64,000 nucleotides of DNA from a virus (lineage: Duplodnaviria; Heunggongvirae; Uroviricota; Caudoviricetes), in IMG/VR virus record IMGVR_UViG_3300009008_000004, positions 18,004 through 82,003 of that record; one strand, given 5' to 3'. The notes beneath the pieces were generated by a model. That model saw nothing but the letters and a program-made list of their open reading frames with translations. It had not been told where the DNA came from and searched no databases. Made by a program: the position numbers and the translations under genes. This document shows, piece by piece, positions 2,930 through 54,523 of the stretch. How positions within the stretch are numbered: the first letter of the stretch is position 1; each line of letters begins with the position of its first letter.

Positions 2930-2932
2930 GGG

Positions 2933-3276: not shown

Positions 3277-3287
3277 AAAAGGGCTAA

Positions 3288-3306
3288 GGGAGGAAACTCC
3301 CTTTTT
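3288..3306 (+). terminator. rho-independent terminator (GGGAGG-aaa-CTCCC + T5)
   Basis: hairpin followed by TTTTT directly after 3276 stop. Confidence 0.55.
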
Positions 3307-3320
3307 ATCTCATTGAGATA
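3306..3320. promoter_or_regulatory. palindromic operator-like site TATCTCA-TTGAGATA
   Basis: perfect inverted repeat overlapping a TTGAGA -35-like hexamer 18-19 bp upstream of TATAAG. Confidence 0.45.
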
Positions 3321-3335
3321 TTTGGGGCTATGCCG

Positions 3336-3343
3336 GGTATAAG
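3336..3343 (+). promoter_or_regulatory. GGTATAAG box (putative -10-like promoter element)
   Basis: recurrent 8-mer in + strand intergenic regions; here 39 nt upstream of ATG 3375. Confidence 0.4.
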
Positions 3344-3374
3344 AAGGGTAGATAACCAAACGGAGGACAATACA

Positions 3375-4982: not shown

Positions 4983-5031
4983 ATGAGCCAGGGGTCCCCC
5001 GGGGAAACTCGGGGGCCCCGCAGGAGATAGA

Positions 5032-5313
5032 ATGGCGAAGCAATTATCCTTTGATGAAAGAACTGCAAACCTTGTAGAGAGAATCAAGCAAGACTTCGGC
5101 CCCGATGGGGAAGCCTTCTGGTGCGCAAATTGTGGGGCGTCTAACCTCGCTAAATTCGAGGTCCGCCGACGAGCATTCGGGGCCGAAGTTATCACCGAAT
5201 GCGCAGACTGCGCATGCCGCGAGACAACGTGGATAGCCCTTGCGAAGGAAGAAACAAAGAAACCGAAAACCCGCCTGCAGAAGATACAGGAGACACATGG
5301 CAAAGAAACGTAA
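5032..5313 (+). CDS. Zn-ribbon protein
   Basis: CANCG...CADCAC. Confidence 0.45.
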   Translation: MAKQLSFDERTANLVERIKQDFGPDGEAFWCANCGASNLAKFEVRRRAFGAEVITECADCACRETTWIALAKEETKKPKTRLQKIQETHGKET

Positions 5314-5794
5314 AAAGAAGCGGATGAAGCGGGGGCCGACCCAAGTTCAAGCCTGTATCGCCGACCGGAAGCGTACGGGGGTACGGTGCGGATCCTGCCC
5401 TCTCTGCGCCAAAGAGAACTCCCGGGCCTTACTCGCCCTCGACCTACTGCTTGAAGCGACCAAGCGCTTCAAAGCTAATGAGATCAACACCCTGCTAAAA
5501 GAGGCGCAGTACCTAGCTGATACCTTCACCAGGATAGACTATGGGGTGCACACACCTACAGAGTACGAAATGGGGTTACTCCAAGAGGTCGAGAGAGCGG
5601 AAGCACTCTCGGCGGAGAGGGACCGAGTTTTGCGGGCTATGTCGGGACAAAGACGCATCCCCCCCGAAAGGTTCGACGAGTTCGAGGAGGAGCACATAAG
5701 TAAGATCCGCCAGATCCTGCCCGCACTAGTGGAGGGGCTTCCCGAAGAACTGCCTCCCATCCTCACCCTCCCAGGTGCGGAAGAAGAAGAATGA
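5297..5794 (+). CDS. hypothetical protein with highly basic N-terminus
   Basis: MAKKRKKKRMKRG...; in-frame ATG after upstream gene; acidic C-terminus. Confidence 0.45.
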   Translation: MAKKRKKKRMKRGPTQVQACIADRKRTGVRCGSCPLCAKENSRALLALDLLLEATKRFKANEINTLLKEAQYLADTFTRIDYGVHTPTEYEMGLLQEVERAEALSAERDRVLRAMSGQRRIPPERFDEFEEEHISKIRQILPALVEGLPEELPPILTLPGAEEEE

Positions 5795-5801
5795 GTAGTG
5801 C

Positions 5802-5825
5802 GTAGGGCTTCGGCCCTACTTTTAT
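5802..5825 (+). terminator. rho-independent terminator (GTAGGGC-ttcg-GCCCTAC + T-run)
   Basis: 7-bp GC stem, TTCG loop, then TTTTAT. Confidence 0.55.
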
Positions 5826-5889
5826 CTATAATGGATATTTTTGTGGGAAAGGCGATAGAAATCGATAGAATGGGAACAGAGAGGGACCA

Positions 5890-6069
5890 ATGAAGATCAA
5901 CGCAACCAGGATGTTCACCGTACTCGTGGACCTGGATGAGTCTGAGGATGAAGTGGAACTAACCGCGAGGTATCATCTCCCCGAGCATTTAGAGATGTAC
6001 GCTCCTGAGATCGCCGCCCAGCTCTACACTATCGCCAACGAAATCTTCAACAGAGAGGAGTTCCACTAA
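5890..6069 (+). CDS. small acidic hypothetical protein (59 aa)
   Basis: hand-translated ORF MKINATRMFTVLVDLDESEDE...; TAATG overlap with next gene. Confidence 0.3.
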   Translation: MKINATRMFTVLVDLDESEDEVELTARYHLPEHLEMYAPEIAAQLYTIANEIFNREEFH

Positions 6070-17045: not shown

Positions 17046-17570
17046 ATGCCAAAAGAATACACGGCGCTCCTCCAGATACCGGAGCCTTTACACACATGCC
17101 CCAATTGTGGGGCCCACCCCTTCGAGAGCTTCATGCGCGGATCAGTCCAACGCGCAAAGAGGAGTTGGTTTACCCCCTGGAAGGAGAGACCTTACTGCTC
17201 GATTATCTGCGATATGTGCAAGGAAATAGTGGGGCATGAGTACCCCTTTCTGGGGGAGATAGAGCTAGAAAAGCCCTACCGATATAACAGGGATGTCATC
17301 GCTCCTAAGTACACCTGCGAGGGAGCGCAGCAGAACGTGCTGGCCAGCCTGCAGCAAATAGAGGAGCAGGTAGATGCGCTCGCGGAGTTTATTATGCCCA
17401 AAGAACCCAAAGTAACCGAGTTCCCGGAAAGTGAGGAGCTCGAACAATTTCTGCGAGGAGAAGAAGAGCCTCCCCCGCCGAAACCACCCAAGAAGAAGTC
17501 GAACGTGAAGAGAAGGACCCGTAAGTCCCGCCGGTGGGAACAGATCCTCAAGAAACCACAAGAGGACTAA
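17046..17570 (+). CDS. Zn-ribbon protein with Lys/Arg-rich C-terminus
   Basis: CPNCGAHP...CDMCKE; C-terminal PPPKPPKKKSNVKRRTRKSRR. Confidence 0.5.
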   Translation: MPKEYTALLQIPEPLHTCPNCGAHPFESFMRGSVQRAKRSWFTPWKERPYCSIICDMCKEIVGHEYPFLGEIELEKPYRYNRDVIAPKYTCEGAQQNVLASLQQIEEQVDALAEFIMPKEPKVTEFPESEELEQFLRGEEEPPPPKPPKKKSNVKRRTRKSRRWEQILKKPQED

Positions 17571-17585
17571 TCGCATCCGATACCG

Positions 17586-17593
17586 GGTATAAG
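17586..17593 (+). promoter_or_regulatory. GGTATAAG box
   Basis: 32 nt upstream of ATG 17618. Confidence 0.4.
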
Positions 17594-17617
17594 ACCTCCG
17601 TACGAAGGGAGTTACAT

Positions 17618-19381
17618 ATGGCACTGAAAGACGAGCAATTCATCCAACAGCTGGTCGTCCAGCTGGTAGGACAACAAGCCGAGGAGGGCAAGACAGGAAT
17701 GCACGATGCTGAAAGATGGGAGCAGCTGAACCATGCTCTGCAGGAAGCCAAGGACATCATTACCCAACAAGACGAGATGCTCCGCGAGATGAACGAGCCG
17801 CCTAACTCGTTTGGGACCATCCTCTCAATCGAAGAGCCCGAGCCACCCACGGTGGAAAACCTTCTTCGGAAGAAGGGCCGAGTCAAAGAAGGACGGCCGC
17901 ACGAAGGCCGGGGCATCTTGGTCAAGGATGCCTGGGAAGTCACAGACGAAGAGGGAAAGGCCACAGGAGTTTTCCGCATCTACGCCCAGTTCACCGAGAC
18001 CCCAACGCAGCACCAGAACTACGACCTCGACGATGTCCTCCTCATTGGGGGCGCTGGTGGGACAGTTATCCTCCATACCGGCGAGAAGATCCTGCGTGTA
18101 CCCTTCCCCTATTGGTTGGAGGAAGGTGTCGGGGTGGGCGACGAAGTCCTGCTGAACGTTATGACCCTGGCAATCATCGGAAAGGCAGGAGATCCCATCG
18201 GTGCCGGCGAGATCGGCAGCGTTCGGAATATCATCTCCGACCAACTCTGCGAAGTCGACTACGGTGGCACTACCAGAGTTGTGTTCCAGGGCAAGCATAC
18301 AGAAGAGATCAAGCTCGGGGACCGCGTCGTACTCAACCCCGGCGGAGTCGCTGTCTCCACCAACCTCGGGCGAGGGGAAGACCGGTGGAACCTCGAGACT
18401 GCCCAGGATATCACCTGGGGAGATATCGGTGGGCTCGAGAATGCAAAACGGATGATGCGGGAAGCTGTTGAGTACCCAATCCTCCACCAGGAAATCTATA
18501 CCCGCTACAACAAGAAACCCATCAAGGGTGTCCTTCTCTATGGCCCTCCAGGATGTGGGAAGACTATGCTTGGGAAAGCTGCTGCAACCGCAGTTGCTAA
18601 CCTGCACGGCGGGACGAAGGGTGGTTTCCTCTACATCAAGGGGCCTGAGCTGCTCAACAAGTGGGTTGGTGAGACGGAGGCACAGATTCGCTCCATCTTC
18701 GCAGTTGCCCGTCGGTATCACGAGGAGAATGGCATTCCGGCCCTCATCTTCATAGACGAGGCAGATGCGATCCTCTCCAAACGCGGGTCTGGGAGATCCT
18801 CCGACATGGAGAAGACCATGGTCCCGATGTTCTTGGCTGAGATGGATGGTCTCGACAAGTCGTCTGCACTTGTCGTACTCGCCACCAACAGGTCAGATAA
18901 GTTGGACTCTGCTGTGGTGCGGGATGGTCGTGTGGATCGTAAGATCAAGATTACCCGGCCCACCCCCGAGAGCACCGCGGAGATATTTGCGCTCAACCTT
19001 GTCGACCTTCCGTTTGCGAACGGTGAGGCTGTCGAAGACCTCGCGGAATTCGCGGCACAACAGCTGTTTGACCCCAAGCGAGTGCTGTACCAGATGCAGG
19101 CCAAATCGGGCAACATCCACGAAATTCGGATGGAGCATGCGATCAACGGCGGTATGATTGTGAGTGCTGTCGATCAGGCTACCTCACGGGCAATCGCTCG
19201 GGAGATGGAGGCCAAGAAGGAATCTGGGCTCGCCAAAGTAGACCTGGCTGCAGCAATCAATGATCTGTATCTCCAGAACGCCGATCTGGATCACCACGAA
19301 CTTCTCGTTGAGGTGGCAGACAACCTCGAAGAGGAGATCGCGTCCGTGCGTCCTATGATGCGCGGTAGGAGAGCTGCATGA
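17618..19381 (+). CDS. AAA+ ATPase, PAN/ARC (proteasome-associated ATPase)-like architecture
   Basis: N-terminal coiled coil, beta-rich middle, then classical AAA: GPPGCGKTM Walker A, ALIFIDEADAIL Walker B, second region of homology; RBS GAAGGGAG. Confidence 0.8.
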   Translation: MALKDEQFIQQLVVQLVGQQAEEGKTGMHDAERWEQLNHALQEAKDIITQQDEMLREMNEPPNSFGTILSIEEPEPPTVENLLRKKGRVKEGRPHEGRGILVKDAWEVTDEEGKATGVFRIYAQFTETPTQHQNYDLDDVLLIGGAGGTVILHTGEKILRVPFPYWLEEGVGVGDEVLLNVMTLAIIGKAGDPIGAGEIGSVRNIISDQLCEVDYGGTTRVVFQGKHTEEIKLGDRVVLNPGGVAVSTNLGRGEDRWNLETAQDITWGDIGGLENAKRMMREAVEYPILHQEIYTRYNKKPIKGVLLYGPPGCGKTMLGKAAATAVANLHGGTKGGFLYIKGPELLNKWVGETEAQIRSIFAVARRYHEENGIPALIFIDEADAILSKRGSGRSSDMEKTMVPMFLAEMDGLDKSSALVVLATNRSDKLDSAVVRDGRVDRKIKITRPTPESTAEIFALNLVDLPFANGEAVEDLAEFAAQQLFDPKRVLYQMQAKSGNIHEIRMEHAINGGMIVSAVDQATSRAIAREMEAKKESGLAKVDLAAAINDLYLQNADLDHHELLVEVADNLEEEIASVRPMMRGRRAA

Positions 19382-23884: not shown

Positions 23885-23990
23885 CGGCTAAGACCCGTGT
23901 AGTTTACAGCCGGTTAGAGCAACGTCACCGCGACGTCAATATTAGAATACCGCCCCAAAAAATATCTGCAAGGAATAAAGTGGTCCTTCT

Positions 23991-31079: not shown

Positions 31080-32942
31080 ATGCTCGCAATTCTTGTTTTG
31101 ATCACCATCGTAGTACTGTGCAGCATTGTCGTACTGTGGAAGTTCCGCTTCACCAAGAAGGAGTACACCGGGGAGACCACCATGGGTGGTTACGAGAAGT
31201 ACAAGACGGTGAAGCACCATCTGCCGCGCAAACTGCAGATCCTCGGAACTGCGCTTGCTATCATCCTATGGGCAGCAACATTTCTCGGAACGACTCTGTA
31301 CGTCGCACCGAAGACGGGGTACCTCGAGTACTCAAAGACATGGGGTGGTGGCTCCATGGGACCGGGGCAGATCGTTGCCTACGACGGAGAGAACGGCCCG
31401 CAAGCAGAAATTCTGCCGCCCGGACCCCACATCCTACCCCCGTGGCAATTCGAGGTCATCGAACGCTCCGACTTCGTAGTCCCTCCGGGCCAGATCGCAG
31501 AGCTGTCGACCAAGGACGGCGAACCACTATCCCCGGGTATGCGCTATGCACCTGAGTGGCAAGAGCTATCTGCCTTCCTCGATGCAGTAAACTTCCTCTC
31601 CTCTGGGAAAGGCTACAAAGGCGACCAAGTCACAATCCTCAAACCTGGTAACTGGAAGTTCAACCAGAACCTGTATGTCGCCGAACTCGCGAATGTTACC
31701 AACGTCCAGGTTGGGCACGTAGCAGTCGTCAAGGCAAACTACGGAGATGTCCCCACGCCGAAGACGATCAAGACCGCGAATATCATGGAAGTCGAGGTCC
31801 CGCTAACCAAGGAAGAGTTGGACATGGCCTACAAGGAGGCCATCGAGCTGGAGACCCAGCGGCAATTGGCTACAGGCATCCCCGCGGACCAGGTCAATGT
31901 AAAGCGGGAAGACGTAAAGGTCAAGAAGTCCAAAGTCATGCTCAAGGAAGTGGAGCAAGAAGTGGACGATCCCCTGGTAGACGTCGGCGAGCGTGGGATC
32001 TGGAGGAAGCCGCTGATCCCCGGAGAGTACTTCATGCACACGAAGGCGCATGAATTCAAGGATATTTTGACCATGAAGGTTCGCGTTGCCTACAGTCCTG
32101 AGGACAAGAAAGAACAGGACAACGTAGCGTTGGACCCAATCATCGTAAGGTCGAAAGATGGCTTTGAGTTCCCCGTCGACGTGCGCGTGGTCTACCATAT
32201 CGAACCCTCCGATGCACCTTGGGTGGTGGCAACCATCGGCGATGACGACTACGTGCTGGACAAAGTCATGACTCCTGCGGTTCGGTCAATCTTCCGAAAC
32301 CTCATGGGACGCTCGAAAGCACTCGACTTCGTAGCCGACCGCGAACTCAAGCAGCGGGAAGCAAAGTCACTGATTGCGAAAAAGTGCGCAGTGCACGGCG
32401 TCACTGTCGATGAAGTGCTGATCGGCCGGGTTGGTGATGATGCTACGCTGGGGGCGCTGATGAAAACGCAGAAGGACCGCGAGATTGCAGTCCAGCAGCA
32501 AGTGACCCTTGGGGTGCAGCAGAAGGCCGCTGAGCAGCAGAAAGAGCTCAGTAAGACCCAACAGGAGGCCGAGGAGGAAAAGTCCCTGGCAAAAGCCGCC
32601 TACGAGGTCCAGAGGGCACAACAGCGCAAGCTCCAGGCCCAAGAAGACGCGGATGCGGAGGCAATCAAGGTGAAGGTCGCAGCAGAGGCTGAAGCTGAGA
32701 AGATCCGAACGATCGCTCGCGCAGAAGCGGATGGCTACACAATGAAGGTCACCGCACTTGGGCGAGACACAGTCCGGACTATCGAGGCCCTGCGCATCGT
32801 TGGGGACGCCAATCTACGGATCACGCCAAACGTCATGGTATCTGGTGGAACCGAGGGAGTCGTCAGCGCACTCGCAGGAACACTCCTCAACAACTTCAAT
32901 GTCGCTGGGAAGGGCACAGGAATGCCCATACCCACCGAGTAG
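31080..32942 (+). CDS. SPFH/band-7 (flotillin-like) membrane protein
   Basis: N-terminal TM helices, SPFH-like core (FEFPVDVRVVYHIEP), long Ala/Glu/Gln-rich flotillin-type coiled coil. Confidence 0.65.
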   Translation: MLAILVLITIVVLCSIVVLWKFRFTKKEYTGETTMGGYEKYKTVKHHLPRKLQILGTALAIILWAATFLGTTLYVAPKTGYLEYSKTWGGGSMGPGQIVAYDGENGPQAEILPPGPHILPPWQFEVIERSDFVVPPGQIAELSTKDGEPLSPGMRYAPEWQELSAFLDAVNFLSSGKGYKGDQVTILKPGNWKFNQNLYVAELANVTNVQVGHVAVVKANYGDVPTPKTIKTANIMEVEVPLTKEELDMAYKEAIELETQRQLATGIPADQVNVKREDVKVKKSKVMLKEVEQEVDDPLVDVGERGIWRKPLIPGEYFMHTKAHEFKDILTMKVRVAYSPEDKKEQDNVALDPIIVRSKDGFEFPVDVRVVYHIEPSDAPWVVATIGDDDYVLDKVMTPAVRSIFRNLMGRSKALDFVADRELKQREAKSLIAKKCAVHGVTVDEVLIGRVGDDATLGALMKTQKDREIAVQQQVTLGVQQKAAEQQKELSKTQQEAEEEKSLAKAAYEVQRAQQRKLQAQEDADAEAIKVKVAAEAEAEKIRTIARAEADGYTMKVTALGRDTVRTIEALRIVGDANLRITPNVMVSGGTEGVVSALAGTLLNNFNVAGKGTGMPIPTE

Positions 32943-33164: not shown

Positions 33165-33299
33165 ATGGGAAAGGAAATGTCCACCTATAAGAAACTTATA
33201 CTCGCCGTGAAACTTGCGGCGACGTACTGGTTCTCGATGGGCAAGTTCCCGACCAAGGAGAAGGTGGCAAAGATGGTCCGGGAGAACAAGCGCGGGTAA
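33165..33299 (+). CDS. small hypothetical protein (44 aa)
   Basis: hand-translated ORF MGKEMSTYKKLILAVKLAATYWF...; below ORF-track cutoff. Confidence 0.25.
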   Translation: MGKEMSTYKKLILAVKLAATYWFSMGKFPTKEKVAKMVRENKRG

Positions 33300-33315: not shown

Positions 33316-33969
33316 ATGCTACACGTTATATTACAACTACTGCTTGCTGTTGGACCAGCCGAAAAAAGCCAGGTGGAGGACCATGTCGTCCGCCAGGTGA
33401 TCGAGACCAACTTCGACTTTGACGAGACTATAGTCGAAGACATCTTCTATGTCGCAGAGAGGGCTGAGGCGGATCCGATGATCTTAGCCTCAGTAGTAAA
33501 CCGGGAAAGCAACGGCCACCGGCAAGCTACACGTTACTGCGCTAAATGGAAGAGGAAGGAGGACGGGAAGCGAACGTGTGTAAAAGAGAAGTCGTGCTAC
33601 ACAAAGTGCGCAACCCGTACGTTCAAAGATGCCAACGGCATCATCCAAAGTGTGTGGAAGAATCGCTTAGATGTAGGGCTCTGGCAACTACGAGACGCAC
33701 CATCCTGGTCGTGGGTAAGGTGGTACCGCAAAAACCATGACCCGAGCATCCCCAAGAAATGCGCGGTCCAGCGAGAGTGCAGCCGAGAGGCCATGGTGCA
33801 TATCGTGAAGTACCTGAAGAAGCGGGCAAGCTATAAGAATTCCCGCAGCTGCCGCAAACCCCTGCACATACCAGAGTACCAATGGATCGCCTACTGGAAC
33901 TGGTGCGGCTCCTACAACAACCACGTCAAAACAGCTATCCGGCTGTGGAAAGAAGCGCTCGCGATGTAA
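33316..33969 (+). CDS. SLT-like lytic transglycosylase (tentative)
   Basis: signal-like N-terminus, VVNRESNGHRQA (catalytic E-S) and DVGLWQL resembling SLT GLMQ motif; RBS GGAGG. Confidence 0.45.
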   Translation: MLHVILQLLLAVGPAEKSQVEDHVVRQVIETNFDFDETIVEDIFYVAERAEADPMILASVVNRESNGHRQATRYCAKWKRKEDGKRTCVKEKSCYTKCATRTFKDANGIIQSVWKNRLDVGLWQLRDAPSWSWVRWYRKNHDPSIPKKCAVQRECSREAMVHIVKYLKKRASYKNSRSCRKPLHIPEYQWIAYWNWCGSYNNHVKTAIRLWKEALAM

Positions 33970-34054
33970 ATCCCCTGCAGTATCGGGAATAAGAGAAGTC
34001 CAATAGGCCCACTAACGGGCAAAGTTCTGTAAACACAGAGAGGTGAAGTACGTC

Positions 34055-34279
34055 ATGACAGACAAGAAGACTATCAAGGTTACCGTGGCGAAGCTGGGTG
34101 CTGACGATGTGATCGTCGAGGTCCCGGATGGATCGGAAGTTTGCAAGGTAGCGGGGCAGTCCGGCCTCGATACCCGTGGTTGCGTGTTCCAGCTCGACGG
34201 CGAGACTGTCGAAGGGACCGAATTGGTTGGTGAGGGCCAGATCCTCCAACTCGTCCCCCGCGTCGAGGGAGGGGAATAA
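34055..34279 (+). CDS. ubiquitin-like beta-grasp protein (ThiS/MoaD-like) with C-terminal GG-E
   Basis: 74 aa, KVTVAKLG...VEVPDGSEV...GQILQLVPRVEGGE: size, alternation and penultimate Gly-Gly typical of Ubl precursors. Confidence 0.6.
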   Translation: MTDKKTIKVTVAKLGADDVIVEVPDGSEVCKVAGQSGLDTRGCVFQLDGETVEGTELVGEGQILQLVPRVEGGE

Positions 34280-34303
34280 GAACGTGCGGGTGGGCTGCTC
34301 AAA

Positions 34304-34320
34304 ATATCTCGATTAGATAA
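34304..34320. promoter_or_regulatory. quasi-palindromic operator-like site ATATCTCGATTAGATAA
   Basis: reverse complement of the 11234-11250 site; just upstream of E2-like gene RBS. Confidence 0.45.
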
Positions 34321-34351
34321 TTGGGCAGCCTGCCCAACAAGGAGGAACCAG

Positions 34352-35818
34352 GTGGCATACCAGTACAAAACCAACTACAAAGAGCTGGATGAAGCTCTCA
34401 CGACAGAGGCGGAAGTACTTGGGGCGTATATCATCCCCAGATTCGTTGACGTAAACGGGGCAGCCGACGTACACCACAAGCAAGCAGGGATCCCAAAAGC
34501 ACCTGCGGTATTCCTTGCTATCCAGCAGTATGACGTAGGAAATCCCATCTCAGAGGCGCGATTGCGTGTGCGGGGCGAAGACCTCACACTCACGAAGCCC
34601 ATACGCCCAACAAAGACGCCGGGGGTACCGATCGTTGTTAACAACGGCAAAAAACATGGTACCATAACCATCGGCTCGGTCTACGAGAACACGGTCTACC
34701 TCAACTTCAACCTGCCGAACTTTATCAACGCCAAGCGCTACACCAGAACTGCGCGGGGGAAAACGGGCAACACCGATGGCAGCTTCTTACCCAAACTATT
34801 CGCCCAGCACCTCCGTCCAGCATTCCAACTCGCGGCCAAGTTCGACGAAGGCTACAGCTACGCCGACGAAAAGAGAGTCCACGTCCAGAATGTGCTAAAG
34901 ACTCAAAAGACGGTCAAGAAAGAGCTTGAGCGCAAAATCTCCGTCCAAAGGAGGTCTATCGCCAACCACATCCAGGCAATCGAACAAGCAACCTCTAGGC
35001 TGGGAGAGATGCAACAGACGCTTGCCGGCCTCGAGGCCGACCAGGTGAAGCTTGCGAAAAAGGGGGAGACTCGCTTCCGCATCTTCAACAGCTTGTGGGG
35101 TAATGGCATTCACGATCTACGGATCGAGCCCACGCACATCATATTCCTCACAGCCCCGATCTTCTCCGAAGGGCTACCTTTCGGGCGCTTCTGGGTAACT
35201 ATCCCGCGGGGCGCAGACCGTCAGTACTCCAATATCACGATCAAGGCAGAAAACAACACCTACAACATAGGCGGATACGTACACCCACACATCCACGAGA
35301 ATGGGAGTATTTGCTGGGGCACAGCCGGCACGGTTATTGCGCAATTCCGCGGGCGGGGACAAGAGATCGAATGTATCCCCATTATCCTGGAGTACCTCCG
35401 GACCTACCATCATGACCACCAGTACCGCGCCATTGAGTACTGGGACGAGAAATTCGGTAAAAAGGGGGATAAAAAGCGAACTGACCGTGGTTCTCGCTGG
35501 CGTGAGTGTTACAGTAAGGTTACAGATCCGTACGAGTGTGCAGGATGCTTTGCCCCGGAATGCCCTTACCGGGACGGTGCCGAAGATCGTTGCTACAGGC
35601 AGCGGAACAAGAAGCAGGAGTACATTCGGTGTATGCAGTGTAAGGCCTGCAATAACTGGAAACACGCCAAAGCTGCCTGCCGGAAAAACCATCAGCAGGA
35701 CAGGAAGGATTGCGTGGGCTGCCCAGTAACATCATGTACCTACGCCGAGCCTGAGAAAGTGGCAAAAGCCCGCAAACCCAGACGGAAAACGGCTAAAGGG
35801 AGGACTAAGGCCGCATGA
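34352..35818 (+). CDS. E2 (UBC)-like ubiquitin-conjugating domain protein with N-terminal extension and Cys-rich C-terminus
   Basis: GTG start 7 nt after AAGGAGG; GGYVHPHIHENGSICWGTAG matches E2 HPN-x-x-x-x-G-x-I-C active-site signature; C-terminal 100 aa has 14 Cys (Zn-binding-like). Confidence 0.6.
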   Translation: MAYQYKTNYKELDEALTTEAEVLGAYIIPRFVDVNGAADVHHKQAGIPKAPAVFLAIQQYDVGNPISEARLRVRGEDLTLTKPIRPTKTPGVPIVVNNGKKHGTITIGSVYENTVYLNFNLPNFINAKRYTRTARGKTGNTDGSFLPKLFAQHLRPAFQLAAKFDEGYSYADEKRVHVQNVLKTQKTVKKELERKISVQRRSIANHIQAIEQATSRLGEMQQTLAGLEADQVKLAKKGETRFRIFNSLWGNGIHDLRIEPTHIIFLTAPIFSEGLPFGRFWVTIPRGADRQYSNITIKAENNTYNIGGYVHPHIHENGSICWGTAGTVIAQFRGRGQEIECIPIILEYLRTYHHDHQYRAIEYWDEKFGKKGDKKRTDRGSRWRECYSKVTDPYECAGCFAPECPYRDGAEDRCYRQRNKKQEYIRCMQCKACNNWKHAKAACRKNHQQDRKDCVGCPVTSCTYAEPEKVAKARKPRRKTAKGRTKAA

Positions 35819-36753
35819 AAATCAAAGTAGAACCAACAATTTTCCTTCTGCCAGAAGTCATCACGAAGATCGACATCTGGTGTAAGAAGGCCAAAGGGGA
35901 GGTCTCTGGCCTCGGCCTCATCGACATCGATGAAGATGGGGACATCTTTGTAACTGATGTCTACCTACTTGAGCAAAAGTCATCCAGTGGTAATACGGAC
36001 CTCGACCAGGAGGCTGTTGGTAACCTGATGACCGAACTCAGAAAGGAAGGCATCTCAATGTCCAAGCTCCGCTTCTGGTGGCATTCACATGGGAATGGTG
36101 GAGTATTTTGGTCGGGAACCGATGACAAGACCATCGATATTCTCGGCAAAGGCGGCTTTATGGTCTCCATGGTCACCAACAAGAAGCGGGAGAAGAAGTT
36201 CCGGATCGGGATGCAGAAACCGCTGAAACTGGACCTGGATGACGTTGGGTGGAGCCTCGCCTACTTCCCAGACGAAGAGTTTGAGAAGGAGTGCGAAAAG
36301 GAATTCGATGAGAAGGTCAAGGAGGTCACGACGATCACTACCTTCAAGGGTTCCGGAAACTACGGGCACAACCGCTCCGGCCGGGGCCGCTTCTACCATA
36401 ATGGGCGGTGGCACGACTCCTGGCCCGGTGGCAATGGGGGTTCCCGGACCGATTCTCCAGGAGGTGGGCTTCATCAGCCCGTCCCTTTTCAGGGAGAGGA
36501 CACAAGCCCCGGGACAAACAACCCACTCGAAATGCTCCCGTCGTGGGGAGAAATCCCCGGGACCGACGCAAGAAGTAGAGTCAGCGATCTCGTTGGTCAA
36601 GAGATTGAAGAGGTCGATACTCTCTGGCTTATTCTCAACGAAGCGGACTACACGGTAGCCGGGCTTGACCAACTCCGTAAGGCTAACAAGATCGAAACTG
36701 CGGAGCACAACCAAGCACGCGCCCAACTGAAGGAGCTCGGACTCGATGACTGA
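35815..36753 (+). CDS. JAB/MPN (JAMM) metallopeptidase
   Basis: E...WWHSHGNGGVFWSGTD = HxHx7Sx2D JAMM motif; ATGA coupling to E2-like gene. Confidence 0.8.
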   Translation: MKIKVEPTIFLLPEVITKIDIWCKKAKGEVSGLGLIDIDEDGDIFVTDVYLLEQKSSSGNTDLDQEAVGNLMTELRKEGISMSKLRFWWHSHGNGGVFWSGTDDKTIDILGKGGFMVSMVTNKKREKKFRIGMQKPLKLDLDDVGWSLAYFPDEEFEKECEKEFDEKVKEVTTITTFKGSGNYGHNRSGRGRFYHNGRWHDSWPGGNGGSRTDSPGGGLHQPVPFQGEDTSPGTNNPLEMLPSWGEIPGTDARSRVSDLVGQEIEEVDTLWLILNEADYTVAGLDQLRKANKIETAEHNQARAQLKELGLDD

Positions 36754-37411
36754 TATCGACAGGAATGCTATGTATCATCGGCAGCTCGATATCCTCGATC
36801 CGGAGAAGGCTGCCAAACTCAACGTCACTATTATCGGGGCCGGCGCTATCGGCTCCTTCACCGCACTCTCCCTGGCAAAGATCGGCGTAACCAACATCAC
36901 GGTCTACGACGATGACACGGTAGAGCTGCACAACATCCCGAACCAGTGGTACAGACTATCGGATGTCGGGAAGAAGAAGGTCATTGCCCTCCGCGAGATT
37001 ATCGAGCAGTTTACCGGGGTCAAGATTACCGCGATCCCGGAAAAGTTCGATAAGCAGAAGGCAAAAGGATTCGTCATCAGCGGAGTCGACTCCATGGATG
37101 CTCGCATTGGCATCTGGCAGAACCTCAAGATGCAGTTTCCACAGAGGTATCTGGATGCCCGCATGGGAGCGGAGGTGGGGGAGATACACATGGTGAACCC
37201 GGCCGACTTCGACAACGCCGAACAGTACGAGGAGAAGCACCTATTTCCCTCAACTGAGGCTGCTCCAGGAGCATGTACTGCCCGCAGCACAATGTACTGC
37301 GCCAGCGGGCTCGCTGCGATCATTGCGGCAAAGGTCAGCAACTTCATCAACCAGAGGCCCGACTCGGACCTGATCGTGGACTTCCGAAATATGAAGGTGT
37401 TGCCTGTTTGA
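36746..37411 (+). CDS. E1-like ThiF/MoeB-family adenylyltransferase
   Basis: VTIIGAGAIGS nucleotide-binding loop, YDDDTVELHNIPNQ E1 signature, 8-nt overlap with JAB gene. Confidence 0.8.
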   Translation: MTDIDRNAMYHRQLDILDPEKAAKLNVTIIGAGAIGSFTALSLAKIGVTNITVYDDDTVELHNIPNQWYRLSDVGKKKVIALREIIEQFTGVKITAIPEKFDKQKAKGFVISGVDSMDARIGIWQNLKMQFPQRYLDARMGAEVGEIHMVNPADFDNAEQYEEKHLFPSTEAAPGACTARSTMYCASGLAAIIAAKVSNFINQRPDSDLIVDFRNMKVLPV

Positions 37412-44031: not shown

Positions 44032-45639
44032 ATGTCCAAGCTAGAAACCCTGATCCGGGCTGCGTACCCGGTGATCTACGTTGAGACCCCCGAAGAGGAG
44101 CGGTTGTTCCATGAACTTTCACGGATCACCACCGAAACGGGGCTGGATTTATTCACTTGGGATATTTCCGCTGGCTTCCGCCAGTATAAGGACGACGAGT
44201 TCAAGGACATCGATCCTGAAGCGGTAGAGCCACGCGAGGCTATCCCGCAGTATTTCATCAACAAAGATGACGTGAATGGGATTCTGGTACTCCCCGACAT
44301 CCACCGCCTGTTCCATGATGCCGCCTGCCTACGCTTGCTGCGCAACGCGCTCCAGCTGCGGCACCAGGGTGGCATCAAGATCATCTTGATGTGCTCCCCT
44401 ATCATTGACCTTCCCCTGGAGCTCCGCCGGCAGGTAGCTACTGTCGACTTCCCCCTCCCCTCCCGGGAGGAAATCAAGGAATTCCTCGAGGAGCAGCGCA
44501 ACGACGTCCCCAAGACCCTCTTCCCTGTGAAGAAGGAGATGGCGGAGGTGGTTGATAGCTGCCGTGGGCTGACGATGATGGAGATTGAGAATGTTCTGGC
44601 CAACTGCCTGGTCGAGGATTCTCCTCTGAAACCCAGCCGGGTTATCGGGGAGAAGAAAGAGATTCTCCGTGGGGCCAAGTCCCTGGAGTACATCGAATCT
44701 CCCTTGGAACTGAACAAGGATGTCGGGGGTCTCGAGAACGTGATTGCCTGGCTCGAGCTTCGCAAGCGTGCCTTCTCTGAGGATGCTGTGAAGTTCGGGA
44801 TTCCTGCGCCCAAAGGCTTGCTCCTGGTGGGTTTGCCTGGAACAGGGAAAAGCTTGGTCGCCAAAGCAGTTGGTGGTTCTTGGAAGTTCCCTCTGATCCG
44901 CTTCAATATGGGCGCTGCCTTCTCGAAGTGGCAGGGGGAATCCGAGGCGGAGATCCGGAATGCCTGGAACACCGCAGAGGCCTGCGCACCATGCCTCTTG
45001 GTAGTGGATGAAATTGATAAAGCGACCGGCGGTCTGGGCGGCGACTCAGACAATGGGACCGGGAACCGAATTCTTGGAGACCTGCTGACGAAGATGCAGG
45101 AGAACACCAAGGGCGTGGTCGTTATTGCTACCTGTAATGACGTACAGGCGATGCACCCAGCATTGCTTCGTAAAGGCCGCTTTGACGAGATTATCTTCGT
45201 GGACTTGCCCGGCCCCAAGGCCATCGAGCAGATCCTCGATATCCACTTGACGGCAAAGAAGCAGCCAACGTTGGATTCGTTCACCAAGAAAGAACGGAAA
45301 AGCATCGTCGAGCACATGCAGGGCATGACCGGCGCGGAGATTGAGCAGGCAGTTGTAGATGCCATGTACCTGGCATTTGCTGCTGAGCGGGCCCTCCTTC
45401 CTGAGGACCTCGTAGCTGCCGCTACTAACACCCGACCGTATTGCGTCCTGAAAGAGGAGGAAGTCAAATGGATGCGGAAGTGGGCAGAAAACAGGGCGGT
45501 GCCAGCATCCGCCGAAGTCTTGGACTTGACGAAAGCCCTGGACTTTCGCAAGCGCTTGGGCCAAGAACTCCCAGCGGATTCACCAATGTCTACGGTAAAG
45601 AAGCTGCGGCTAAAACGTCCCTCGCGCTCTGGCTCGTAG
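44032..45639 (+). CDS. AAA+ ATPase (classical AAA clade) with N-terminal domain
   Basis: LLLVGLPGTGKSLVAKAV Walker A, CLLVVDEIDKA Walker B, ATCNDVQAMHPALLRKGRFDEII sensor/Arg-finger region. Confidence 0.8.
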   Translation: MSKLETLIRAAYPVIYVETPEEERLFHELSRITTETGLDLFTWDISAGFRQYKDDEFKDIDPEAVEPREAIPQYFINKDDVNGILVLPDIHRLFHDAACLRLLRNALQLRHQGGIKIILMCSPIIDLPLELRRQVATVDFPLPSREEIKEFLEEQRNDVPKTLFPVKKEMAEVVDSCRGLTMMEIENVLANCLVEDSPLKPSRVIGEKKEILRGAKSLEYIESPLELNKDVGGLENVIAWLELRKRAFSEDAVKFGIPAPKGLLLVGLPGTGKSLVAKAVGGSWKFPLIRFNMGAAFSKWQGESEAEIRNAWNTAEACAPCLLVVDEIDKATGGLGGDSDNGTGNRILGDLLTKMQENTKGVVVIATCNDVQAMHPALLRKGRFDEIIFVDLPGPKAIEQILDIHLTAKKQPTLDSFTKKERKSIVEHMQGMTGAEIEQAVVDAMYLAFAAERALLPEDLVAAATNTRPYCVLKEEEVKWMRKWAENRAVPASAEVLDLTKALDFRKRLGQELPADSPMSTVKKLRLKRPSRSGS

Positions 45640-50320: not shown

Positions 50321-53300
50321 CTACACTACCAGCGTCACGTTGATCTGGTTGGCCGGGTAGTACGGCGTCACCGAGATATCCACATACAGCGTATCCGGCT
50401 GCTGTGAGTCGATGTAGATGTTGGTGATCGTGATCTTCGATACGATTGTCCCAGTCATCCCACCGATTACAGAGCTAACCAAAATGCTCACGTAGTCAAG
50501 GAAATTCCTTGTCAGATTGAACTTCCCAGCCAACCCCTGCATAGAGACCCGGAGCCGCTTCGTGATGTAGTCCAGCACATGGGTGATGGACGCTTCCCTG
50601 GTTTGCAGGGAGGTGACATCGGTAGTCAGCTGATGCCGAGTTTCAACTGCGGAGTAGCTGTCCTGCTGGATCAACCACCAAACACCGCCGCCGGCCGCGG
50701 TATCCATGTCGGAAGCTGACAGGAGATCCCAGGAGCCAGAGACACTCTCAATACCCGCAAGAGTAAGTCCGGTAAAGGACTGCTGCGGGGCAGTCGAAGC
50801 GCACAACCCAGCAAGGGCTGCACAAGTGTACATCCCATGGATAGAGGTCGAGGACCCACTTTCCAGGTAGGTAGCAGACGAGGGCTGCACGTACCGAACA
50901 CGGCGGTATCCGTACGCCGTCGCCTTTGAAGCAAGAGCAGCTGCGAGCTGCGCACGCCCCGTCGAGGTTGTGGTATCGATGGAGGCCTGCCTGACATAGA
51001 GAGTAACTGTCTCGCCATCAGCATCCCAAGCCGGGCTGTCTCCACCGGCCTCAACCATAGTAGTTGCGTAGAAGTTATCATCGTTACCGGTGGTCCCCGG
51101 GCCGGAGCCTGCGGAGAAACCGGTGATGCGGCACTTCAACACGTTGCCGGCCTTAATCTCAGACACGGAGTACTTGAACGGATCGTCCGTACGAGTGATG
51201 TAAAGGCCGTTTTCAATGGTAACTGCTCCCGAAATAGGGACAGTCGCACCATTTGCGTCGGTCTTGCCAGCCAGCACAGCAGCAATATTGAAACCGGTGG
51301 CCGCATCGATTGTGACCTCAAAAGAGGTACCAGCAATCTTGTTGAACGGAGCCGTGGTATTCGGTGCCGAGCCACAAGTAGTCGGGGTGCGCTCTGTAGG
51401 TGAATCTTCACAAACGAAGCACACACGCTCGCTCTTTCCGGTAGTCGGGTCTGCCATCGCAGTTACGTGGGCATCAAGCAGCTCATGGACTGCAGGGCTA
51501 TCCGACATCGGAGCAATGGCGTAAACATCGGCAGACTGCAGGAAGTCGAAGGCCTTGGCGTAGGCGCTCGTGGTTCCATAAGCCATCAAAGTCGAGGTTT
51601 CTTCGACACCAAATGCCTTCACCTGGATATTCGGTGCGTTCAGCATCGCAAGGTACACACCGAGGGCCAGCGGGTTCGAAGAATTGACGGGACCAATTGC
51701 AGTCTCCATCTCAGCGTAGGTCGAGTAAATCTGCACAGCCGGGCTTGCACCCGCGGCAGTTATGTCGGTACGCAGGGCAGTGTATCCAGCAGCCAGCTGC
51801 GCAGTGCTGCTCTGGTACTCAACACCACCACCATCTCGGTTAAGCCCGCCCTTCAGGTAGATCAGTTGGTTGGTAGTATCAAACCAGACCTCAGACCGCG
51901 GCTTATCAGAAGTAGTGTTACCCTGGTACTGCCCATCGGTAGCCGCACCAGTAATACCTTGAGAGGAGATGTACCAGGTGCCAAGAGCAGTACCTACTGT
52001 GGCGTTTTGCTCTGTCAGGTCGAGGTATGCGTTGGTCAGTGTCTGAGCGCCAACTATGCCGTCGTTCCAGGTATAGTTAGCGAAGGCAGAGATTGTTCCA
52101 ACGTAACTTCCGGCGTTATACAACTTATCACCGACCTGCACGCGCAGGGGGTCCCCGCGGAAGATCTTACCGGTGAAGTCTGTTGTAGACGTGGTGTACG
52201 GCCCACGGAACAGCATGTTCGCGGCATCTCCACCGAACTCAATTCCCGCATCGTAACCGGCGTAGTTACCGCACATGGTTGCGTCCAAGGTACACTTCAA
52301 AACTTTTTGGCCCGTAGTGAGCAAACGGTAGTCTACCGTATAGGGCCCAGCACCAAGAGAAGCAGCCAAGGTAATCGTCCCAGTCGCTGGGTTGATCCCA
52401 GATACCGTTGAGATAGTTCCCCCCAACGTACCGGATCCTCGGGGAACTGTGTCCCCGGTAATCTGCGCAAGAATAGTCGCCCCACCAACCCGAGCAGCCT
52501 CAACATACGTTAGAGCCGCGACATCGGCCGAAGCGTCTACGAGGGAAGTTGTAGTTAGCGTAGCTGATGTACTGCCATACATCTCTGTAGCATATGGAAT
52601 ATCGGCAGCAGCTTCGGCTGTGAACGGGGAACCGCCGGTCACCAACGCATTAAGGGCTGCAAGCAATCCCGCCTCATTCGTCATGTCAGCCGCATCAAGC
52701 GTATCCGACGTAACCGGTCCCCCATTCACCCTAACAGTAATTGTCTTATTGATCAGGGGTGAGGACGCGCCGTAGAATGACGCCGCGGTGAGCGGGCATT
52801 CCCCAAGTACCGTGGGGTAGGTTTGAGTTGCGCTTGTCGCGGCGTAGTTATATGGATCCGCCCCAAAGTTTAGGCCGTAGATCTTGCCGCTCAAGTCATC
52901 AGAAAGTAAAGCAGATGTAGAACCGTCCAAGTAGCTAATGTTAGTGCTCCCGACAGTCGTGTTAGGTCCAAGAAACGGCTCAATGGTCGCATTCGCCTTC
53001 ATGGCAGTATCAAGGGCGGCCGCCTTGCAGATGTCGGGAACAGCTACTGTCCAAGCCGCGCCACCTGCCCCGCAAACCGCTGGGCAGTATTCAATTTCAA
53101 TTTCTACCGGGAAGGCCGCCCCAGCTACGGGATTCTTTACATTCGGGAGAATATAAGACCCGGGCGATACCGTAAATCCTACGTCAGCCGCGACGCTCGA
53201 GATAATCGTAACGGCCCCACCGGTAAGGGTAGTCAGAGTAAAGACGGGACCAGCGCCTGTAAGGATATACCAACCATTATAGGCTTCGCCCGGGCCCGAC

Positions 53301-54523
53301 CCAGCTTCGAGGTACACGTATGCACCGGTAGCAACCGTACCGGCTGCAACGCCAAGAACACTGGTGAACTGGTCAGGCGCTGTTACATTGCCGTCGGCCA
53401 AAATTCCGTGGCCTGCCCCATCAACATCAGTTTCAGTAAATTTGACCGCAATTTGATTACCGAAAGCTCCTACACCAACACCGGGAGTTACACTCTGGTC
53501 AGTGATGAACTTTTGGAATCCATGGGCCTCAAAATGGTACGCAGCAGTAGTAGTTACACCATCCGCCGACAATTGAATGTCTGTGTACGCGTGCCGGCCT
53601 GTTTGCAGGAGACGACTTGAGGTAGAACCTGTCCCAACTGGCCACAACAATTGGTTGTTTGGGAGTGCATCCAAATCCCACTCGTTACCTGTCAATTGAG
53701 TATCAAGCCAAAGCTCTTTTCCGCCGGGAACAGCGGTACCACCGCCAATGGGCTGCACATGTCCTTCGCGACCAAAGAACCGTTTACCACCCTGGTAGTT
53801 GATGGATTCCTGGTTTGCTGCGTAAGTGCCGGCACCCGCACCGTTATCATATGTAACGCCGACACGGTTATATCGGTTACGGTTGATGGCACTTTCATCA
53901 CTCAAGGTAACAATCGATCCACCCCAGATCCGCGCGACATTGATATTGGTCTCGTCGAAGGTGAGGTAGTCGATAATCCCCCGAGAATCGGGAAGAGACT
54001 TGTACGGGAAAACCATCGGGTTATTCTCGTAGTCACCACTTCCGTAGTACCGAATATCCTCAAAGCCGTTAAACCCGAGAATGGTATGCGCAGAGGTTGC
54101 CCCACCCGAGCGGAACATCAAGCTCGAGCTGTCTCCAGTAGAGACGGTCCGTACACGGATGGTGGTTCCAAAGTAGTCCCAATAGAGATACCCAGAAAAG
54201 GCCTCATTGAGCTTAGAACAGACCGTAGCAATCGGAAGAGTACCCACCGTAGTGAAGGTATACTCACGGTTCGTCCCGTCAACCTCGACATAAATGCTTT
54301 TTGCCGAAGCGCTGATCGCGTAAGTCGCGGTACCACCACCAGAGATGATGGGCGGGAGCGACAGCAGCGCACTGCTGTTCACCGAGCCGTCAGAACTCTG
54401 CATTTCGATGATCTGGTAACAAGGCCCGACAATACATGCCGGGAAGGTAGGACTGTAGATAGTCGGGGTGACAGTCTGCAGTACCTGCTGAATCGTCAAT
54501 CCGGGCTGAGGAATAGAAGCCAT
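50321..54523 (-). CDS. large (1400 aa) Thr/Gly/Ala/Ser-rich structural protein, putative tail fibre/host-recognition protein
   Basis: single 4.2-kb ORF, beta-rich low-charge composition, not helical like a tape measure. Confidence 0.65.
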   Translation of the reverse strand: MASIPQPGLTIQQVLQTVTPTIYSPTFPACIVGPCYQIIEMQSSDGSVNSSALLSLPPIISGGGTATYAISASAKSIYVEVDGTNREYTFTTVGTLPIATVCSKLNEAFSGYLYWDYFGTTIRVRTVSTGDSSSLMFRSGGATSAHTILGFNGFEDIRYYGSGDYENNPMVFPYKSLPDSRGIIDYLTFDETNINVARIWGGSIVTLSDESAINRNRYNRVGVTYDNGAGAGTYAANQESINYQGGKRFFGREGHVQPIGGGTAVPGGKELWLDTQLTGNEWDLDALPNNQLLWPVGTGSTSSRLLQTGRHAYTDIQLSADGVTTTAAYHFEAHGFQKFITDQSVTPGVGVGAFGNQIAVKFTETDVDGAGHGILADGNVTAPDQFTSVLGVAAGTVATGAYVYLEAGSGPGEAYNGWYILTGAGPVFTLTTLTGGAVTIISSVAADVGFTVSPGSYILPNVKNPVAGAAFPVEIEIEYCPAVCGAGGAAWTVAVPDICKAAALDTAMKANATIEPFLGPNTTVGSTNISYLDGSTSALLSDDLSGKIYGLNFGADPYNYAATSATQTYPTVLGECPLTAASFYGASSPLINKTITVRVNGGPVTSDTLDAADMTNEAGLLAALNALVTGGSPFTAEAAADIPYATEMYGSTSATLTTTSLVDASADVAALTYVEAARVGGATILAQITGDTVPRGSGTLGGTISTVSGINPATGTITLAASLGAGPYTVDYRLLTTGQKVLKCTLDATMCGNYAGYDAGIEFGGDAANMLFRGPYTTSTTDFTGKIFRGDPLRVQVGDKLYNAGSYVGTISAFANYTWNDGIVGAQTLTNAYLDLTEQNATVGTALGTWYISSQGITGAATDGQYQGNTTSDKPRSEVWFDTTNQLIYLKGGLNRDGGGVEYQSSTAQLAAGYTALRTDITAAGASPAVQIYSTYAEMETAIGPVNSSNPLALGVYLAMLNAPNIQVKAFGVEETSTLMAYGTTSAYAKAFDFLQSADVYAIAPMSDSPAVHELLDAHVTAMADPTTGKSERVCFVCEDSPTERTPTTCGSAPNTTAPFNKIAGTSFEVTIDAATGFNIAAVLAGKTDANGATVPISGAVTIENGLYITRTDDPFKYSVSEIKAGNVLKCRITGFSAGSGPGTTGNDDNFYATTMVEAGGDSPAWDADGETVTLYVRQASIDTTTSTGRAQLAAALASKATAYGYRRVRYVQPSSATYLESGSSTSIHGMYTCAALAGLCASTAPQQSFTGLTLAGIESVSGSWDLLSASDMDTAAGGGVWWLIQQDSYSAVETRHQLTTDVTSLQTREASITHVLDYITKRLRVSMQGLAGKFNLTRNFLDYVSILVSSVIGGMTGTIVSKITITNIYIDSQQPDTLYVDISVTPYYPANQINVTLVV

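Follow-up and report, generated by a model that had tools for sequence, protein, structure and literature searches.

The stretch of DNA considered here (the window) comprises 64,000 nucleotides of a virus of the class Caudoviricetes (IMG/VR record IMGVR_UViG_3300009008_000004, positions 18,004 to 82,003) and contains a compact group of four genes whose predicted products resemble components of a ubiquitin-like conjugation pathway. The smallest encodes a putative ubiquitin-like protein (Ubl) precursor in which a Gly-Gly pair is followed by one further residue, and it is succeeded by genes for an E2-like protein, a metalloprotease of the JAB type and an E1-like adenylating enzyme. These genes and the ribosome-binding site of the first are as follows.

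34040..34046, + strand: Shine-Dalgarno sequence GAGGTGA of the Ubl gene, invariant in a four-locus alignment and about 6-9 nucleotides 5' of the ATG
34055..34279, + strand: Ubl precursor gene, 74 amino acids; Gly72-Gly73 at 34268-34273, Glu74 at 34274-34276, stop codon at 34277-34279
34352..35818, + strand: E2-like protein, 488 amino acids; N-terminal region and coiled coil, UBC-type core at approximately residues 226-370, Cys-rich C-terminal domain
35815..36753, + strand: JAMM/MPN+ metalloprotease (JAB), 312 amino acids; its start overlaps the E2 stop codon (ATGA)
36746..37411, + strand: minimal E1-like adenylating enzyme, 221 amino acids, ThiF fold; its start overlaps the end of the JAB gene by 8 nucleotides

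A preliminary description of this DNA, made from the letters alone, had placed the JAB gene next to the Ubl gene. The JAMM gene it pointed to is real, with a catalytic motif that is invariant in 33 homologues, but the E2 gene (34352-35818) lies between the two and the order is Ubl-E2-JAB-E1. The last three genes are joined by overlapping stop and start codons and would form a translationally coupled block.

The Ubl open reading frame (ORF) begins with ATG, translates as MTDKKTIKVTVAKLGADDVIVEVPDGSEVCKVAGQSGLDTRGCVFQLDGETVEGTELVGEGQILQLVPRVEGGE and ends in Gly72-Gly73-Glu74-stop (PRVEGG-E). An identical product of 74 amino acids occurs in public gene calls from four metagenome contigs, the longest of 182,679 bp, and a search of 5.8 billion proteins returned four close homologues at 64-72% identity. 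Pairwise comparison of the window with two diverged loci revealed 28-31 synonymous-only differences and 19-20 amino acid changes in 67 codons, an excess of synonymous change which implies purifying selection, and the ORF can be taken, on this codon pattern, as a real gene. The octapeptide LVPRVEGG is invariant in all five close Ubls (the window protein and its four homologues, 64-100% identity), and the residue after Gly-Gly is different in each of them (E, C, R, K and D). The VEGG-E ending originally described is therefore borne out by both the translation and the alignment, eight invariant residues being followed by a hypervariable one. The alignment points to an architecture that is conserved up to a freely varying last residue, rather than to a chance ending, and the freedom of that residue suggests a discarded propeptide. 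No match to the protein was found in Pfam, PHROGs, PADLOC or NCBIfam.

Functional assignment of so short and isolated a protein relied on its family. When 1.84 billion representatives were searched exhaustively with a profile, 29 members were recovered, including two-unit and four-unit tandems; the tandems were split into units and 35 units were aligned. The resulting consensus is xVxVxKLG...G.TV..A....G....G.....NG..V.......DGD..TL.P.V.GG, in which G72 is invariant and G73 is conserved in at least 90% of the units. A first AlphaFold2 (AF2) model built from five close sequences only was uninformative, with a predicted local distance difference test score (pLDDT) of 53 and no helix. The model built from the 35-sequence alignment reached a pLDDT of 91.5 and a predicted template modelling score of 0.74, with a beta-beta-alpha-beta-beta-beta topology (strands 6-13 and 19-24, helix 29-36, strands 43-47, 50-52 and 63-68) and a flexible tail at residues 69-74. 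Comparison of this model with the PDB by Foldseek identified MoaD/ThiS-like proteins, ubiquitin, NEDD8, SUMO and the Caldiarchaeum ubiquitin at probability 1.0 and template modelling (TM) scores of 0.65-0.76. The family profile matched SAMP2 (5lda_B, expectation value (E) 6.5e-13), PF1061 (1.5e-12) and MoaD (1.2e-7), as well as TtuB, full-length ubiquitin and, weakly, the lambda tail-tip protein I. The beta-grasp fold first proposed from sequence is thus the fold on which model, structural comparison and family profile agree, and the 74-residue protein is, as modelled, a beta-grasp Ubl.

The C-terminus of the modifier Pup provides one other way of reading this C-terminus, since mature deamidated Pup ends in GGE, as does the window protein. 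A Pup-like chemistry, in which the Gly-Gly-Glu end would be used as such and the Glu side-chain carboxylate ligated to lysine, can be given almost no credence. The nearest homologues of the window protein end in C, R, K or D and the family as a whole varies widely at this position, and the protein is a folded beta-grasp whereas Pup is disordered; on these two grounds we rejected the reading. The cassette, moreover, has an E1, an E2 and a JAB, and no ligase or deamidase family was matched among the flanking proteins scanned against Pfam.

The ending was then set against that of related cassettes, for which 76 loci from viral contigs or contigs of metagenome-assembled genomes (MAGs) were pooled, with obvious duplicates removed, some near-duplicates left and ORFs called mechanically. 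The E1 gene was present in 73 of these, the E2 core in 68 and the Ubl in 67, and all four genes occurred together in 62; the gene orders include Ubl-E2-JAB-E1, E2-JAB-E1-Ubl and E1-Ubl-E2-JAB. Among 52 related Ubls of the Gly-Gly type, 42 carry non-conserved tails of 1-8 residues, the commonest length being a single residue (no tail, n=10; one residue, n=19; two, n=14; three to eight, n=9). Many residues occur at the first position of the tail (R, A, C, I, S, Q, N, F, E and others). A further 17 Ubl ORFs have no Gly-Gly in their last 11 residues and mostly end in AG, GN, GA or similar.

Several viral loci encode head-to-tail di-Ubls, in which each unit ends in ...VKGG followed by a linker of 1-2 residues and the last unit carries one additional residue, a layout that at the sequence level mirrors polyubiquitin genes. 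Tandem Ubl genes were located at L011:4263-4676, L012:7669-8079, L014:7672-8082, L020:7694-8098, L035:4579-4995 and L050:8007-8480 of the related loci. In the profile-derived family, P0008, P0009, P0011, P0013, P0017, P0021 and P0031 are two-unit proteins, and the four-unit proteins P0018, P0022 and P0024 end in KGN or GKNG, not in Gly-Gly.

The candidate processing enzyme has the JAMM motif E...HxH-x7-S-xx-D (E29, H90-S-H92, S100 and D103). A profile of its family matches the Caldiarchaeum Rpn11-like structure 6fjv at 8.4e-9 and Rpn11/PSMD14 at approximately 3e-8, and this search of solved structures returned no BilC or Cap3 entry at E<=1. Trimming of a short tail by such an enzyme ahead of E1 adenylation, which the preliminary description invoked as known logic, has two experimental precedents. 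In the Type II Bil system of Ensifer aridi, BilC cuts BilA between Gly97 and Ala98, as determined by Edman sequencing, which removes a one-residue tail, and BilC also cleaves conjugates (PMC10557695). The structure of the E. aridi E1 shows that Ala98 of BilA blocks ATP binding and adenylation (PMC10557695). In Caldiarchaeum subterraneum, an Rpn11-like JAMM removes a propeptide of nine residues after Gly-Gly, and uncleaved pro-ubiquitin is refractory to E1 (PMC5654768).

Assignment of the E2-like protein depends on a conserved core within an otherwise isolated sequence. Its active-site motif is H311-P312-H313-x7-Cys321-x-G323, with Cys321 encoded at nucleotides 35312-35314. Only four full-length homologues were found, in which GY-HPH-x7-C-x-G and 12 C-terminal Cys residues are invariant; more widely, the gene 5' of JAB carries HPH[VI]xxxGxxC[WLF]G in approximately 30 viral loci, two of which have HPN instead. 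A profile of 28 such cores aligns with residues 5-138 of UBE2L3 (E 5.5e-5) and also with Rad6, UBE2D2/3 and UBE2N. The 60 profile matches shown were all E2s, with HPH placed on HPN and the Cys on the catalytic Cys. Pfam UQ_con matched two of the 28 cores (best E 0.0056), the window protein not among them. The full-length protein alone had no match in Pfam, PHROGs, PADLOC, NCBIfam or the PDB, and against the PDB both the single sequence and a four-sequence profile gave matches at chance level only. By core profile and invariant motif, the 488-residue protein is classified here as a putative UBC-type E2.

The 12 invariant Cys residues (C386...C462) fall within approximately residues 385-470 (nucleotides ~35504-35761), a region without a family match, and Cys-rich C-terminal stretches are also present in many E2-like proteins of other viral loci. 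No RING or zinc-finger family was matched in this tail or in the neighbouring proteins. The tail might be a zinc-binding, E3-like targeting module.

The E1-like enzyme is the most readily recognised member of the cassette (Pfam ThiF, 4.5e-21, 75.5 bits against a cut-off of 28.1) and consists of a single domain at residues 18-201. Its nucleotide-binding motif is G31-x-G33-x-x-G36, GxGxxGS being conserved in 53 homologues of 207-250 amino acids. All 53 homologues have Cys177, which we read as the putative equivalent of ThiF Cys184 and MoeB Cys187. Relatives in the PDB include Uba1, PaaA, Uba5, MoeB, ThiF and Cap2, and the best NCBIfam matches are ThiF.

These affinities raise the possibility of a sulfur-carrier pathway, in which a Ubl of the ThiS/MoaD/QbsE type would be trimmed by JAB, adenylated by E1 and converted to a thiocarboxylate for thio-modification of a cofactor, tRNA or phage DNA, with no protein tagged. 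By profile the Ubl lies nearest to SAMP2, MoaD, TtuB and ThiS, the E1 is of the minimal ThiF/MoeB type with its NCBIfam affinities lying there, and JAMM trimming of sulfur carriers extended beyond Gly-Gly is known for QbsE-QbsD and CysO-Mec+. We nevertheless regard this pathway as distinctly unlikely here. The coupled E2, with an invariant HPH...Cys that aligns with eukaryotic UBC enzymes, is found in 68 of the 76 related loci and has no place in it; rhodanese, sulfurtransferase and cofactor or thio-biosynthesis genes were not seen in the window or the syntenic flanks; and the tandem, polyubiquitin-like Ubls of the relatives would be left unexplained.

Considering these observations together, we find it likely that the window gene encodes the modifier of a phage-encoded Ubl-E2-JAB-E1 conjugation cassette, synthesized as a precursor that ends in Gly-Gly-Glu and is trimmed by JAB. 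Fold, motifs, operon and the behaviour of the tail across the family are observed or modelled directly, and the subsequent chemistry can be proposed by analogy. The Rpn11-like JAMM would remove Glu74 and expose Gly73, which the small, homodimer-type E1 would adenylate and probably load as a thioester on Cys177. The Ubl would then pass to Cys321 of the UBC-type E2 and from there to a lysine of a phage or host target, chosen by the N-terminal and Cys-rich C-terminal parts of the E2 or by syntenic neighbours. The same JAB probably also undoes conjugation, given its retention in relatives with a Ubl that already stops at Gly-Gly.

Several points weigh against this proposal. The E2 cores were picked by a motif regular expression, which makes the motif match circular, whereas the alignment over the remaining fold is independent of it. 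As single sequences, the window E2 and JAB each fall below Pfam thresholds; the JAB scores 16.5 bits for Prok-JAB against a cut-off of 25, its one match across Pfam, PHROGs, PADLOC and NCBIfam, and its best E in the PDB is 0.3. The window E1 has an HNIPNQ motif, the ThiF/MoeB counterpart of which is SNLxRQ. The related loci were gathered via JAB, and its co-occurrence with the other genes is partly by construction. A single tail residue could also be removed by a host carboxypeptidase. Finally, the 10 tail-less Ubls among the 52 belong to loci that keep JAB, which means that processing is not the sole role of JAB and need not be its main one.

The obvious second job for JAB is probably deconjugation. 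In a stronger form, JAB would be mainly a deconjugase or counter-defence deubiquitinase (DUB), acting for instance on conjugates made by host Bil, Bub or CBASS systems or in recycling of the phage Ubl, with the tail removed otherwise or tolerated. Retention of JAB beside Ubls that end exactly at Gly-Gly speaks for such a role, as does the ability of BilC and the Caldiarchaeum Rpn11 to cleave isopeptide conjugates. Both of these enzymes also carry out processing, however; in the BilD structure, adenylation is physically obstructed by a residue that follows the reactive Gly; and the hypervariable tail is what is expected of a discarded propeptide. We judge the deconjugase role unlikely as the principal explanation, and it is compatible with trimming of the Ubl precursor by the same JAB.

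Expression of the cassette was considered from the DNA on either side of the Ubl gene, where two further features lie.

33984..33993, + strand: promoter-like variant box CGGGAATAAG, ~60 nucleotides 5' of the Ubl start codon, a one-base (T-to-A) variant of CGGGTATAAG
34288..34335, + strand: stable RNA hairpin in the Ubl-E2 spacer, the apical part of which is the palindromic element ATATCTCGATTAGATA (34304-34319)

The canonical box CGGGTATAAG occurs in five exact copies against 0.05 expected, all on the + strand and 13-60 nucleotides 5' of + strand genes. The copies are at window positions 1253, 3334, 11262, 17584 and 31018 (+), and a related form, CTGGTATAAG, is at 23989. The box upstream of the Ubl has counterparts at the corresponding site of two diverged relatives, CTGGAATAAG and CTGGCATAAG, with A or C at the variant position, and the same two relatives use the T form CTGGTATAAG at another gene. 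A box form of the relatives, CTGGTATAAGG, was noted at L005:4166 and L009:2054. The block C[GT]GG[AC]ATAAGAG is conserved 5' of the Ubl in four loci. The variant box named in the preliminary description accordingly exists and is conserved in position, and the separate E2-JAB-E1 promoter that it assumed did not find support, the Ubl-E2 spacer having no -10-type box. One candidate for that promoter, GGGGAATAAG at 34271-34280, was rejected: it consists of the codons GGG-GAA-TAA (Gly73-Glu74-stop) and has no conserved counterpart in L005 or L009, and its likeness to the variant box is probably a coincidence. Scans of 33-38 kb with σ70 and terminator consensus sequences gave background levels.

The spacer hairpin has a minimum free energy of -32.1 kcal/mol (z = -4.4), and none of 200 shuffled sequences folds as well. 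The corresponding spacers of L005 and L009 also hold GC-rich hairpins, and a T-run after the stem is absent in the window and the relatives. The palindrome in its apical part belongs to a family, (A/T)TATCT-N5-AGATA(T/A), with 15 matches on both strands against 0.5 expected and sites at window positions 3305, 5823, 11234, 27717, 29030, 32998, 34304, 46959, 50299 and 62341. Several of those examined are intergenic, and a terminator-like hairpin immediately precedes some of them. A CGGGTATAAG box follows two of the copies (ATATCT-N5-AGATA) at a distance of 17 nucleotides, an arrangement that suggests an operator or a -35 element. From these sequence features, the most likely organisation is a single transcription unit with its start at the variant box conserved 5' of the Ubl. 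Within it, the spacer hairpin, or a protein that recognises the palindrome, may set the ratio of Ubl to enzymes in favour of the Ubl. Of the independent dosage control once suggested for the modifier, a differing dosage thus stays plausible, through attenuation or RNA processing, a second promoter having found no support.

The genes flanking the cassette are partly shared with related viruses and include the following.

33165-33299, + strand: conserved 44-amino-acid ORF preceding the 217-amino-acid gene
33316..33969, + strand: syntenic 217-amino-acid protein directly 5' of the Ubl, supported by gene calls and by synteny in L001-L010
37466..38950, + strand: syntenic 494-amino-acid coiled-coil protein directly 3' of E1, its position filled in L005 (513 amino acids) and L009 (369 amino acids)

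The order 44-amino-acid ORF, ~215-amino-acid ORF, Ubl, E2, JAB, E1, coiled-coil protein and PD-(D/E)XK nuclease is kept in three diverged virus lineages. The 217-residue protein has no family match in Pfam, PHROGs or NCBIfam; the 494-residue protein has weak coiled-coil/SMC-like matches only and could be an adaptor or a target. The surroundings are non-structural and include an SPFH protein, a phosphoesterase and the PD-(D/E)XK nuclease. The SPFH/Band-7 protein, of 620 amino acids, is encoded at 31080-32942 (+), two genes 5' of the Ubl. On L002, the copy on the 182-kb contig, this gene (4062-5935) appears as two ORFs of 245 and 372 amino acids, and in L001 it is intact; the split may represent strain variation or an assembly frameshift.

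Elsewhere in the window lies a gene for a 1400-amino-acid protein whose C-terminal domain is of the tail-sheath type (phrog_279, 1.1e-12). This protein (50321-54523, - strand) is unusually long for a sheath, and its last ~200 residues alone match tail sheath/TssC. Other phage-like genes encode a PG_binding_1 endolysin-type protein, a member of a phage exonuclease family and two AAA ATPases, one of which matches phrog_8638 at 1e-109. By gene content the window is phage-like and does not resemble a bacterial defence island, and the peptidoglycan-binding endolysin suggests a bacterial host. The window's two AAA+ ATPases of PF00004 (Cdc48/FtsH-type) are encoded at 17534-19381 and 44032-45639 (+), and the orthologous AAA gene of related viruses holds an intein (PF14890; L005:1-897 and L008:19410-20219). 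A degradation pathway in which such AAA+ (PF00004) proteins would be tied to the cassette was rejected as a general feature, an ATPase being present within ~6 kb in only five of the 76 loci.

The JAB family is represented in IMG/VR by 51 loci on contigs of 8-190 kb. In 185,579 species genomes it occurs at only 24 loci, which lie without exception on MAG contigs, belong to scattered phyla and include no isolate, a distribution that suggests viral contigs binned into MAGs. Some cassettes have duplicated parts: L032 (5773-7562 and 9290-10649) has two JAB-E1 pairs and two Ubls, L034 (5926-7759) has two adjacent JABs, and in L021 (4649-5968 and 9362-10567) and L022 the E2-like gene is present as two or three paralogues. 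Among 50,697 deposited phage genomes, there was no match to the 5-kb region by blastn or to JAB by tblastn. A tblastn search with the E1 identified 88 records in deposited phages, including Flavobacterium FpV4-like, Bacteroides, Xanthomonas, Acinetobacter, Ralstonia and Erwinia phages. Flavobacterium phage FpV4 encodes a 423-amino-acid JAMM protein (hidden Markov model match, 1.9e-11) directly 5' of a ThiF annotated as "thiamine biosynthesis protein". This distant cassette (L062, KT876724.1 58935-69495) comprises ORFs 1607-2476, 2548-3810, 3686-4957 and 4932-5618; its products are a 289-amino-acid protein with a Ubl-like domain that ends in ...KMFG, a 420-amino-acid protein, the JAMM and ThiF. 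The Ubl-like domain of the 289-residue protein was recognised through BFVD, by way of the Fpv3 orthologue A0A1B0WKU8 (TM 0.73).

Trimming of a one-residue tail by JAB would in itself be an ordinary mechanism, already precedented. What looks new is the setting, that is, a widespread virus-borne cassette of eukaryote-like composition with polyubiquitin-like precursors in some of its members. No description of a phage-encoded Ubl-E2-JAB-E1 cassette was found in the literature, which is weak evidence given that subscription journals were mostly outside the coverage; the closest that came up were reports of E1-like genes from Asgard viruses and of the TAPI/TAPK pair of lambda. We regard it as a serious possibility, slightly short of probable, that tailed phages of many lineages carry an undescribed, virus-specific ubiquitination kit. 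It would consist of a Gly-Gly Ubl precursor, made in some phages as head-to-tail repeats, a UBC E2 in which an HPH/HPN-Cys active site is joined to targeting domains of variable kind, a JAMM of the Rpn11-like type and a minimal E1. Used during infection, it would serve as a weapon of offence or of counter-defence by tagging proteins of the host or the phage. Such a weapon would mirror the bacterial Bil defence, which tags phage tails.

Prokaryotic Ubl conjugation has so far been known as a cellular matter, represented by Bil, Bub and CBASS in defence, by sampylation and by the Caldiarchaeum operon. The proposal, if true, would put the same conjugation chemistry in the hands of phages, in a family of at least 62 complete cassettes on viral or MAG contigs, and would open the questions of what phages tag and why. 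It would also place UBC-type E2s, Rpn11-like DUBs and polyubiquitin-like genes in a third lineage, in addition to archaea and bacterial defence islands, and would bear on the origin of the eukaryotic system. Culturable Flavobacterium psychrophilum phages of the FpV4 group, with their distant versions of the cassette, would provide an experimental entry point.

Comparison with characterised systems places the cassette near several of them. Type II BilABCD of Ensifer aridi (Chambers et al.), an antiviral ubiquitination system of the bacterial ISG15-like kind, shares the four-gene set of Ubl, E2, JAB/JAMM and E1 and the one-residue tail, and in the BilA family a conserved reactive Gly is likewise followed by 0-9 non-conserved residues (PMC10557695). 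BilD is a multidomain protein of ~500 amino acids with an inactive and an active adenylation domain (IAD and AAD), an inserted CYS domain and a zinc-stabilised C-terminus (PMC10557695), whereas the phage E1 has 221 residues and one adenylation domain. The phage E2, at 488 residues, differs in its large added N-terminal and Cys-rich C-terminal parts. The nearest structural homologues reported for BilC are an archaeal JAMM and AMSH enzymes (PMC10557695), and the profile of the phage JAB finds Rpn11-like structures; the phage Ubl, for its part, ends in Gly-Gly and is SAMP2/MoaD-like. PADLOC at E<=0.1 returned no family for the Ubl, E2 or JAB, the presence of Bil models in that library being unconfirmed, and for E1 the best 25 of 34 families were all Cap2-type "E1-E2" models. 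The genome is phage-like instead of a bacterial defence island. Membership of the Bil type is thus not upheld in the features tested: E1 architecture, JAB relatives, PADLOC models and genomic setting.

The ubiquitin operon of Caldiarchaeum (Aigarchaeota; PDB 6fjv, 6fno) resembles the cassette in its post-Gly-Gly tail, its UBC-type E2 and its Rpn11-like JAMM, which is the best solved match of the phage JAB. The archaeal tail is nine residues long, however, and the operon includes a small RING E3 (srfp), whereas no RING was detected in the phage cassette; the archaeal system is cellular and the window system viral, and the phage E2 carries extra domains. In the SAMP/UbaA/HvJAMM1 sampylation system (SAMP2-PfJAMM1, 5lda), the closest solved Ubl by profile is joined by a minimal MoeB/ThiF-type E1 without a CYS insertion and by a JAMM partner. 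To our knowledge sampylation has no E2, unlike the phage operon with its invariant Cys, and SAMPs also serve in sulfur transfer. Eukaryotic polyubiquitin precursors likewise combine a reactive Gly-Gly with one extra, non-conserved residue on the last unit and require a DUB for maturation. Only the fold and the Gly-Gly are shared with eukaryotic ubiquitin precursors, however, and the window gene has a single unit. Its processing enzyme would be a JAMM, whereas eukaryotic precursors are processed mainly by Cys-protease DUBs. Phage lambda, finally, encodes in TAPI and TAPK a beta-grasp Ubl and a JAB peptidase predicted to cut after a C-terminal Gly (Iyer et al. 2006, PMC1779556). That pair is likewise phage-encoded, and the lambda tail tip protein I is weakly matched by the Ubl family profile, but the pair has no E1 or E2 and is set among tail genes, whereas the window cassette lies among non-structural genes.

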